Below the pieces are notes generated by a model, which saw only the letters and a program-made list of their open reading frames with translations, was not told the origin of the DNA and made no database searches. A stretch of 64,000 nucleotides of DNA from assembly GCA_963731265.1 (NCBI GenBank), contig CAVSUE010000001.1, positions 1,408,001-1,472,000 of the forward strand, in the 5' to 3' direction. Shown here piece after piece: positions 55,578 through 57,065 of the stretch (position 1 is the stretch's first letter; every line of letters begins with the position of its first letter). Source of the stretch: an uncultured Verrucomicrobiae bacterium (lineage in GTDB: Bacteria > Chlamydiota > Chlamydiia > Chlamydiales > Rhabdochlamydiaceae). The translations under genes were made by a program, and so were the position numbers.

Positions 55578-56372
55578 ATGAGTTCTACAAGCCAACTAGA
55601 GAATATCCCTTTAGCAGCCAGATATTGGAAATTCAAAGTCCTTCTCCTGTGCCATGTCATCGCCGCGCTACTCGTCGCCAGTTTATTTTGGCCCATCACA
55701 AAACCGTTTTGGAATACCATCGATGTGGCATTTTTTAAAATGGTGAATTCTACTCTCAAAGACCGCCCCCTCTGGCAGCTGTTTTGGGCTTGTGCCAATC
55801 ATAGACTTGCTGATTGGGTAGAAGATCTTTGCATCCTTGCCTTTTCCATCGCCCATGTGCGTAGCGCGCATCGCCATTTAAGGGCCCGCAAAATCTCCGA
55901 GCTACTCTTTTGCGTGCTCTGCATCGCGGCCACCCTCTATTTCGTCAACCGCATCCTTTTCCGCCATAACCTCGATATTCAACGCTTAAGCCCCACCCTT
56001 GTCGTAGAGGACAGTGTTCGCCTTTCCGATGAAATTACCTGGATGAAGATCAAAGACGATTCGTCCAAAAGCTTTCCCGGCGATCATGGAACGACGGCGT
56101 TACTCTTTGCTGCCAGTTTTTCTTTCATCGCGGGCTGGCGTTTGGGATTGTTTGCCTGTCTATATGCAGCATTTTTGTGTATGCCACGCCTAATCACGGG
56201 CGCCCATTGGCTCTCCGACGTCGTTGTCGGCAGCGGCGCGATCACCATCGTCTGTTTAAGCTGGGCCTTTTGCACCCCGTTGTTTACCCGGTTTACGGAT
56301 AGATGCGAGAAGTTTTTTAACTGGATAGGCAGCAAGATAAAAAAACTCTCTAACCCTAATCGTTATCCTTAG
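55578..56372 (+). CDS. PAP2-family membrane phosphatase/phosphotransferase, LpxT-like
   Basis: R.SPT, SFPGDHG, PRLITGAHWLSD. Confidence 0.8.
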   Translation: MSSTSQLENIPLAARYWKFKVLLLCHVIAALLVASLFWPITKPFWNTIDVAFFKMVNSTLKDRPLWQLFWACANHRLADWVEDLCILAFSIAHVRSAHRHLRARKISELLFCVLCIAATLYFVNRILFRHNLDIQRLSPTLVVEDSVRLSDEITWMKIKDDSSKSFPGDHGTTALLFAASFSFIAGWRLGLFACLYAAFLCMPRLITGAHWLSDVVVGSGAITIVCLSWAFCTPLFTRFTDRCEKFFNWIGSKIKKLSNPNRYP

Positions 56373-56461
56373 CTCCCTTTCTTGAGGTACGCGAGGTAAG
56401 CAGCTATGGGCGAGACAGAGGGTCCATAGGGCAAAGCCGTAGCCCCGGGTAATGATCAGGC
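56354..56461 (+). mobile_element. MITE family C, degenerate copy 3, with 5-bp TSD
   Basis: CCCTAATCGTTATCCTTAGCTCCCTTTCT..GGGTAATGATCAGGC; TCTAA at 56349-56353 and 56462-56466. Confidence 0.75.
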
Positions 56462-56462
56462 T

Positions 56463-56981
56463 CTAAGCCTGCCGCGTGAGATAAAACATTTTGATCTTTT
56501 GTGAGTGAAACTAATCCGCCACAACCCTCTTCACCACCTCCATCTCAAAAGGCTTGCGTGAACCCAGGCCTTAAGGCCTGGGATTAAGTTGGGGCCGCGC
56601 TTCATACTCGGCCCAACATTGTTTTTGAAAATACCCGGCCCTTAAGGGCCGGGTTTCCGCCAGAGGACGGATGAAAACACATCGAGATATGCATCCCCAT
56701 TCTTATCGACGAAATGGCCTGTGATGGGACTGGTTTCGATCAATTGGACTAAAGAATACCCTGCCTTGCTGAGGTCGTGCGTGGCAAAATGCTCTAAAAC
56801 AGGTTCCTCATACGACCCCATGTCGATTTTTTTCAGAGCGTTTTAAAGAATGACGCTAAATTTTCGCGGTTTGTAATTTCCTCACGGTTGCACCCTTGGC
56901 AATCAAGGATGAGATGATATCCCCGATATCCTCACTTTCTTGTAAAGATGGGCTTCTCCTGATTAGTAAAATTTCAGACAT
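56463..56981 (-). pseudogene. speD: S-adenosylmethionine decarboxylase proenzyme pseudogene
   Basis: Manual translation: GYHLILDCQGCN.../LKKIDM..HFATHDLSKAGYSLVQLIETSPITGHFVDKNGDAYLDVFS|CKPFEMEVVKRVVAD*FHSQKIKMFYLTRQA*; frameshift near 56835, internal TAG at 56511-56513, and an insertion. Confidence 0.85.
56558..56670 (-). mobile_element. 113-bp non-autonomous IS200/IS605-type palindrome element (PATE-like)
   Basis: Subterminal hairpins ACCCGGCCC-TTAA-GGGCCGGGT and CCCAGGCC-TTAA-GGCCTGGG; inserted 3' of TTCAT, ends in TCAC, no TSD. Confidence 0.8.
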
Positions 56982-57065
56982 TAGCAAAACGACATTTTCT
57001 CTCCACTAGAAGAATTTTGCCGGAGTTGATAAGCTGCCGAAATAGTTTTGCTTGAGGTGAAATTT

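Follow-up and report, generated by a model that had tools for sequence, protein, structure and literature searches.

A probable non-autonomous IS200/IS605-type element of 113 bp in a speD pseudogene of a chlamydia-like bacterium, and the start-codon placement of its family

What is the short, hairpin-rich sequence that splits the speD gene of an uncultured chlamydia-like bacterium, where exactly does it begin and end, and how did it come to lie there? We addressed these questions for a window of 64,000 nucleotides, C1:1408001-1472000, in which C1 and C2 denote the two contigs of the assembly (2,342,831 bp, 45.8% G+C) and handles such as G004 denote individual genomes. Positions 56558-56670 of the window very probably hold a non-autonomous element of the IS200/IS605 family of insertion sequences (IS), of the IS608-like subgroup, i.e., a PATE or miniature inverted-repeat transposable element (MITE). 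Its active, or top, strand is the minus strand of the window. The coordinates of the features are collected in Table 1.

Table 1. Features of the mini-element, its host gene and the resident IS605-type element (window positions unless a contig is named).
Feature	Position	Strand	Basis or remark
113-bp non-autonomous IS200/IS605-type element (PATE)	56558..56670	-	40 full-length genome copies; boundaries from empty sites
Target, or transposon-adjacent motif, TTCAT, within speD codons TTT TCA T(GC)	56671..56675	-	38/46 copies; empty site in G004
Right terminal motif TTCAC (transposon-encoded motif), cleavage after the last C	56558..56562	-	Right-end counts and empty-site junctions
Left-end terminal mini-hairpin, top positions 1-14	56657..56670	-	Stem variation between genera, alignment by eye
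Predicted left guide GAAA, adjoining the left hairpin foot on its 5' side, partner of TCAT	56654..56657	-	IS608 rule
Left-end hairpin, perfect palindrome, TTAA loop	56633..56654	-	96.5% of cells paired, 16 sequences
Middle hairpin, loop with GAAG at 56600-56603	56589..56616	-	Compensatory stem changes, conserved loop
Canonical right-guide position, reads TAAT, no fit to TCAC	56583..56586	-	Rule predicts GAAG
Right-end hairpin, perfect palindrome, TTAA loop	56563..56582	-	Palindrome search and 16-sequence alignment
speD pseudogene (S-adenosylmethionine decarboxylase proenzyme), split by the element	56463..56960	-	Alignment with six sister-species genes
1.7-kb IS605-type element, two copies (L045, L046)	C1:926562-928384 and C1:315819-317530		tnpA and tnpB divergent

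The single-stranded DNA fold of the mini-element region reaches -34.1 kcal/mol, compared with -20.3 ± 2.95 kcal/mol for shuffled sequences (z = -4.69), and none of 200 shuffles matched it. The hairpins at both ends are subterminal and lie on the same strand, without terminal inverted repeats reaching the tips, and the stem of the mini-hairpin at the left tip shows matching changes on both arms between genera, as judged by eye from the alignment. No open reading frame (ORF) of 30 or more residues lies wholly within the element; two minus-strand ORFs overlap it (56602-56700 and 56642-56821) and extend beyond it into flanking DNA, and the second is the interrupted speD frame. A permissive Rfam search of 56300-56950 returned three chance-level matches (E = 0.18-0.93), far under the gathering scores. 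The first-pass annotation, made from the letters of the window, had described an IS200/IS605-type mini-element of this length in speD, with two TTAA hairpins, a third between them, no ORF and no target-site duplication, and this description holds.

A BLASTN search of the 113-bp unit against its own assembly gave 83 alignments, of which 49 span at least 50 nt and 40 are full length; 38 of the full-length copies lie at 91-97% identity and the other two at 75-81%. Among the 46 copies that keep the left end, the 5-nt 5' flank is TTCAT in 38 and TTTAT in two, one alignment is offset, and TTTAC, GTCAT, CACAT, TTGAT and TTCAC occur once each. The last five nucleotides of the 43 copies with a right end are TTCAC (32), TTCAT (9), ATCAT (1) or TTCAG (1), and the first 3' flanking base is variable (T18, A11, G8, C6). 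Since conservation cannot separate target from element at TTCAT, we sought empty sites.

The speD gene itself provides the first of these. All six sister-species speD genes, alignable on both sides of the insertion point, read FSCKPF there (...DVFSCKPF...), whereas the window reads ...DVFS, the element, and then CKPF..., with a cysteine codon that requires the T of TTCAT. Removing exactly 56558-56670 restores TTT TCA TGC AAG CCT TTT (F-S-C-K-P-F), and only this removal recovers the cysteine; a model with a 4-nt duplication gives CGC (Arg) instead. The sister genome G004 carries TTCAT at the identical place in speD without the mini-element. A nested copy (C1:927786-927897) inside a 1.7-kb IS is missing from the second copy of that IS and from its relatives in G002 and G003, where TTCAT is followed directly by the right flank, and the insertion site at C1:361512 is empty in G003. 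Also absent from G003 are a tandem dimer (C2:65344-65566), in which the second copy stands immediately after the TTCAC of the first, and the copies at C2:70247 and C1:1237623. In these three empty sites the left flank runs directly into ATGA (ATGAA at the first two), so that the G ahead of TGAA at the filled sites is part of the element and not of a duplicated target.

Altogether, seven independent empty sites are consistent with insertion 3' of TTCAT, which stays 5' of the left end after insertion, and four of them (speD, the tandem dimer, C2:70247 and C1:1237623) exclude a duplication of TTCA/TGAA; the model of a 4-bp target duplication was rejected on these four. The junctions proposed in the first-pass annotation, namely insertion 3' of TTCAT, a right end in TCAC, excision to F-S-C-K and the lack of a target duplication, are thus borne out at base resolution, as is its expectation that other copies follow TTCAT. 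Because sister species lack the examined copies at the corresponding sites, the family has moved after those species split.

Two less clean sites were not used as evidence. At C1:360015, three extra nucleotides stand at the junction in G013 and G002 (CAC in G013), and at C1:378585, G002 has the 8-nt ATGAACCC directly before ATGAATCC. The start codon in G013 that matches C1:378585 carries an unrelated insert of ~165 bp with terminal inverted repeats (C4:454300-454650, L075). This start-codon site may be a hot spot or may show a footprint.

As for the host gene, speD is intact in six sister species and has further lesions here. An A-run at about 56827-56835 has lost 1 nt, which shifts the frame; a TAT codon is changed to TAG at 56511-56513, 16 codons ahead of the stop of the ancestral frame (56463-56465); and the 5' end is deleted or has diverged, with ~20 nt and the ATG lost relative to four relatives. 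Among public sequencing runs, no RNA run was listed for this stretch, and the one DNA run listed gave a single 194-nt contig (56706-56899), which falls short of the mini-element. The speD copy is simply one insertion into a dead gene.

Some other copies have rearranged. Four of them (C1:1247965, C1:1319789, C2:93111 and C2:127594) keep the left end and the middle hairpin and have lost the right hairpin, with breakpoints clustered at bottom-strand positions 23-33. Two further copies, C1:1280456-1280713 and C1:1281272-1281535, are inverted relative to each other, and each is split at the same point just inside the right hairpin by an insert of ~145-155 bp with shared sequence; each adjoins the ATG of a 242-residue ORF, the two ORFs being divergent.

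The enzyme that moved such an element would be a transposase of the Y1 family. Pfam Y1_Tnp matches two loci in this genome (146.5 and 97.3 bits), each adjoining a divergent tnpB with matches to OrfB_IS605 and Cas12f1-like_TNB, and the two loci are copies (94-97% identical) of one 1.7-kb IS605-type element. The best solved relative of its TnpA is the ISHp608 transposase (E = 9.9e-23). The closest TnpAs elsewhere, at 88% identity, come from metagenome-assembled genomes (MAGs) labelled Chlamydiae or Verrucomicrobia, and Pasteurellaceae, among other groups, have relatives at 70-76% identity. The resident IS and its multi-copy relatives start after TTTAT and end in GGTTCAA; the TTTAT flank is found at both own copies and at 10 of 13 related copies compared, the other three having GTTAT, TTTAT inside a rearranged left end, and GCTTAT. 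The ends of the resident IS have the same architecture as those of the mini-element but a different sequence and a different target. Across the genus, Y1_Tnp matches occur in six of 19 genomes including the present one, with a full-length, high-scoring copy in G002 only. None was found in G013, an assembly only 64% complete, which nevertheless has at least 41 matches at ~80% identity to the speD locus, nearly all to the mini-element and two to the speD flanks among the matches listed.

The left end of the mini-element follows the logic of IS608. In the part of the IS608 literature used here, the cleavage sites and guides are TTAC/AAAG on the left and TCAA/GAAT on the right, with A16 pairing to T-3 and A17 to T-4 (PMC5934647). 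We formulated the rule as pairing of guide position 1 with site position 2, guide position 2 with site position 1 and guide position 4 with site position 4, the last being our extrapolation from the two IS608 pairs. The mini-element obeys it with TCAT and GAAA, and the resident IS obeys it at both ends, with TTAT and AAAA on the left and TCAA and GAAT on the right. The difference between the two is compensatory, the target having T to C where the guide has A to G. We aligned 15 elements from 13 genomes that represent several families of the order. The left end is readable in 14, and in 11 of these guide position 1 fits (by eye), with both states present; the misfits are G159b, G217 and G203. 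Two copies in G180 pair TTTAT with AAGA and TTCAT with GAGA, respectively. Within the subfamilies of the genus, target position -5 is variable and TCAT is kept in 17 of 21 elements.

Several observations weigh against the assignment to a TnpA-mobilised, IS608-like element. The four nucleotides before the right hairpin are TAAT, AAAT or CAAT, where GAAG is predicted for TCAC, and the linker between the right hairpin and TCAC measures 1 nt as against 4 nt in the resident IS. The hairpins of the resident IS differ as well, with TTTA or TTTAG loops and a bulged T in the left stem. A tnpA bounded by the ends of the mini-element was not found in the own genome or the 19 genus genomes, and these ends were absent from 80 retained loci of TnpA relatives (all from other records, the window's own record possibly being left out), where only 13-21-nt matches to the left hairpins of those loci themselves appeared. 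Moreover, both resident tnpA copies look defective. Copy 1 has a mini-element exactly at its ATG, a 1-nt deletion in codon 6 that shifts the frame, and HVQ where eight of nine aligned TnpAs have HVH, whose histidines correspond to the metal-binding H64/H66 of IS608 in the source consulted in part (PMC5934647). Copy 2 keeps HVH, and 25 scrambled residues replace its conserved ...LWSPSYFAGSCG... stretch (LWSPSYF region).

The strand bias leans the way expected of such transposons but is weak overall. The GC skew puts the origin at about C2:0.18 Mb and the terminus at about C1:1.06 Mb, which suggests one chromosome with C2 bridging the ends of C1. On this map, 32 of 49 copies have their top strand on the lagging-strand template (p = 0.044), with 15 of 19 copies away from gene starts and 14 of 27 at gene starts.

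Since both tnpA copies look damaged, mobilisation in trans is doubtful today, and the family is probably immobile in this genome at present. The first-pass annotation had supposed that the lineage carries or carried a tnpA acting in trans, possibly with a TnpB that recognises a TTCAT transposon-adjacent motif. The first half of this stands in part: a tnpA/tnpB element is present in two copies, although with different ends, a TTTAT flank and tnpA genes that look damaged. The second half finds no support, as the resident tnpB elements are flanked by TTTAT, and no tnpB or iscB inside a TTCAT-flanked element was found among the tnpB elements checked. Nor did the tnpA/tnpB pair bounded by the same hairpins, for which it had proposed a search, turn up in the own genome or in the 80 loci.

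The GAAG that fits TCAC is present in the loop of the middle hairpin instead of at the hairpin foot. The loop, T-N-C-G-A-A-G, is kept in all subfamilies and genera aligned, and the stem beneath it is maintained through compensatory changes: in 16 sequences, 96.1% of the cells pair, and helix 2 is changed on both sides in five of nine pairs. The covariation score of 0.193 compares with 0.066 ± 0.010 for shuffles, none of 500 reaching it, and with at most 0.084 for slid controls. The last base of the loop co-varies with the last base of the mini-element. In the own genome, GAAG occurs with a terminal TCAC in 29 copies and with TCAT, a G-T compatible pair, in six copies plus one that was mis-parsed, and GAAA occurs with TCAT in three copies and with TCAC in none. 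Those three copies form a clade that differs from the family consensus at three of 113 positions, i.e., the last base of the element, the loop base, which is unique to the clade, and a common polymorphism at position 9. Other genera show GAAA with TCAT in G233 (two copies) and G309, and GAAA with TCAC once, in G244; GAAG goes with TCAC in eight elements and with TCAT in one (by eye).

This pattern suggests that the loop of the middle hairpin carries the putative right guide. The copies within a clade are non-independent, which weakens the covariation between loop and end, and the conservation of the loop could equally be explained by the stability of the hairpin, as GCGAAGC-type sequences form mini-hairpins of their own.

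The mini-element would have moved as single-stranded DNA in a "peel and paste" manner, served in trans by a Y1 (HUH) TnpA bound to each of the two top-strand hairpins with TTAA loops. The element's own GAAA guide, just 5' of the left hairpin, would have read the target core TCAT, and the guide for TCAC at the right cleavage site would probably have been the GAAG that the middle hairpin carries in its loop.

Since TCAT is complementary to ATGA, start codons are found at many of the sites where copies land. Taken as a whole, TTCAT has the complement ATGAA, whose ATG opens an ORF of at least 80 residues in 27 of the 46 copies. By a crude ORF model, which is not an annotation, the genome has 8001 ATGAA sites, of which 479 (6.0%) are ORF-initial, 732 intergenic and 6790 inside ORFs. 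The 27 gene-start copies correspond to a binomial p of 1.3e-21 against 6.0%, and to p = 0.0099 against 39.6% (479/1211), the share of ORF-initial sites among ORF-initial and intergenic ones. Survivorship explains much of this enrichment, since copies that land within genes are lost. Of the 27 ORFs, 18 were scanned with Pfam; 15 of these have families, and in six the beginning of a domain profile matches within the first nine residues (cytidylyltransferase-like (NadD-like), FAD_binding_2, MPG, Pyr_redox_2, FtsW/RodA and epimerase). In the empty sites of G003, the same ATG stands behind a native leader. Gene-start placement recurs in G013, with a different subfamily and independent insertions, in nine of 19 copies fetched (18 of the 19 could be anchored, and seven ORFs reach the end of the 600 nt fetched).

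The left tip of the element adds to this picture. Directly before the ATG, its complement reads GGAGGACGG in about two thirds of the copies and AGAGGACGG otherwise; the speD copy has the AGAGGACGG variant of the GGAGGACGG-type Shine-Dalgarno sequence beside its flanking ATGAA. The 16S tail carries CCTCC, and the 4-nt spacer after GGAGG falls in the range most used by native genes, of which 15, 15, 14 and nine have GGAGG at spacers of 4, 5, 6 and 7 nt, respectively. With this complement directly before the ATG, gene-start copies would replace the gene's own ribosome-binding site and would be tolerated there. In other families of the order (G231, G203, G217 and G120, by eye), the left tip lacks a Shine-Dalgarno-like complement, so the feature is lineage-specific. 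Our literature search, in which the slash in the family name could not be searched, returned no description of this mini-element family or of its start-codon habit.

How far has the host made use of these insertions? A mobile 5' leader, adopted by the host and kept at genes for its strong ribosome-binding site and perhaps for an RNA structure, would extend the interpretation as an IS200/IS605 derivative rather than replace it, and we give it slightly less than an even chance. The excess of copies at ORF-initial ATGs over the genomic share, the Pfam families behind them, the recurrence in G013, and the agreement of GGAGG and its spacer with the 16S tail all speak for such a leader. They are offset by survivorship, which accounts for most of the enrichment, by the crude ORF calls of the null model and by the four genomes whose left tips lack the Shine-Dalgarno-like complement; in addition, a scan of 56300-57000 found no promoter or terminator site in the putative leader. 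More tentatively still, and with the odds rather against it, we propose that the PATE family joins a portable ribosome-binding site (a TCAT core and a GGAGGACGG left-tip complement) to a right site read by the GAAG of an internal loop. In this joint proposal the element may slot between leader and ATG and take over translation initiation, and the genes so served may include housekeeping ones, namely FtsW/RodA, NadD-like, PyrF and TruA-like genes as well as tnpA of the partner element.

Other origins are far less probable than a derivative of IS200/IS605. A MITE bounded by terminal inverted repeats, mobilised by cut and paste through a DDE transposase and leaving a short TTCA/TGAA duplication, could account for the two related palindromes, which form the sole long inverted repeat (30 nt, 77%), and for TTCA at both junctions. 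That repeat is offset from the junctions, however, overshooting one by 5 nt and stopping 7 nt short of the other; the base beside TGAA at the four empty sites contradicts a duplication, and right ends in TTCAC (32/43) contrast with left flanks of TTCAT (38/46), so that we regard this origin as very improbable. The GC-rich palindrome, the high copy number and the often intergenic position recall REP/BIME-type repeats, spread by a domesticated RAYT (TnpA-REP) of the same Y1 transposase family, or a static regulatory palindrome. Yet the only Y1 genes of the genome are the two tnpA genes beside tnpB, and a solitary Y1 gene bracketed by repeats was not found there; the unit is a fixed 113-bp element of three hairpins with defined ends and a fixed 5' target; and it is inserted in coding sequence and in another IS, with orthologous sites empty. 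This explanation has no better prospects than the DDE one. The least credible, in our judgement almost negligible, is that the ends belong to the IS607-type (serine recombinase) element of the genome, a possibility that the first-pass annotation had itself named as a counter-case. Such an element is indeed present, 2.2 kb long, with a 208-residue MerR-like/serine recombinase ORF and a 522-residue TnpB, in five full and three partial copies at 96-99% identity; its ends share nothing with those of the mini-element and have neither TTAA hairpins nor a TTCAT flank. One full copy lies at C1:1472674-1474883, 674 nt past the right end of the window.

The distribution of the mini-element is narrow. 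Of 301 genomes drawn from the phylum, 16 contain a match at E <= 1e-8; they belong to 11 of 165 genera and all to the same order. Two other short repeat families were seen alongside. One of ~165 bp (C1:377091-377256, L065 17592-17757) directly adjoins a mini-element copy and is found many times in G001 and G013 and once each in G002 and G004; the other, of ~210 bp (C1:372582-372797, L065 13083-13298), has copies in G002, G003 and G013.

Considered by itself, the speD insertion is a small transposon of an ordinary sort in a gene that no longer functions, and it belongs to a known kind. Its family is a well-documented addition to the PATEs, from environmental chlamydia-like bacteria, with junctions known to the base and numerous natural empty sites. 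The change of guide from AAAA to GAAA with that of target from TTAT to TCAT would be a natural case of retargeting, of interest to those who work on IS200/IS605 elements and TnpB. A right guide carried in a loop, if true, widens the known rules for the choice of cleavage sites, which serve the engineering of targeting. With a target complementary to a start codon and a Shine-Dalgarno sequence borne by the element, a transposon can occupy position -1 of essential genes, and gene-start insertion would offer mobile DNA a simple route to rewire translation initiation.

Among known systems, ISDra2 of Deinococcus radiodurans and its short derivatives insert at TTGAT, transpose as single strands and prefer the lagging-strand template. 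The mini-element has a pentanucleotide target in common with ISDra2, with a different sequence and different ends; we know of no start-codon association for ISDra2. REP/BIME repeats with their RAYT share with it a Y1-family enzyme and high-copy palindromic repeats, but REPs, in the part of the source drawn on here, are shorter, lack a fixed two-end structure and are tied to a solitary RAYT gene (PMC8266576).

The closest parallel is found in Geobacillus stearothermophilus, where ISGst1-5 are accompanied by PATE-like, gene-less elements (Meers et al., 2023; PMC10055086). In the portion of that report used here, the target is TTCAT for ISGst5 and TTTAT for ISGst2, the wild-type right motif is TTCAC, motif and DNA guide co-vary among the IS605-family elements, and one candidate tnpA for all elements, chosen from similar ends, was active in excision and transposition assays (PMC10055086). 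As far as that portion goes, our family resembles the Geobacillus elements in being a gene-less IS200/IS605 derivative in tens of copies, with TTCAT or TTTAT as adjacent motif and TTCAC as right motif. It differs in its phylum, the nearest named records being MAGs labelled Chlamydiae, Parachlamydiales or Verrucomicrobiae, and at 113 bp it is too short for an omega-RNA scaffold and matched no Rfam family. Its right guide appears to lie off the canonical place and its left tip encodes a Shine-Dalgarno complement.

The model for the mechanism remains IS608 of Helicobacter pylori (2a6m, 2vjv), with which the present system shares a homologous TnpA, a tnpA and tnpB pair, and subterminal hairpins. 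The arrangement of the two genes, divergent in the resident IS, sets it apart, as do the 1-nt right linker of the mini-element and the lack of a fitting guide at its hairpin foot. Within what the cited source covers, IS608 reads its target by a 4-nt guide 5' of the left hairpin (PMC5934647), as predicted for the mini-element, and the right end of the resident 1.7-kb IS, TCAA with GAAT, is that of IS608 itself, whereas the targets differ, being TTAC in IS608, TTAT in the resident IS and TCAT in the mini-element.

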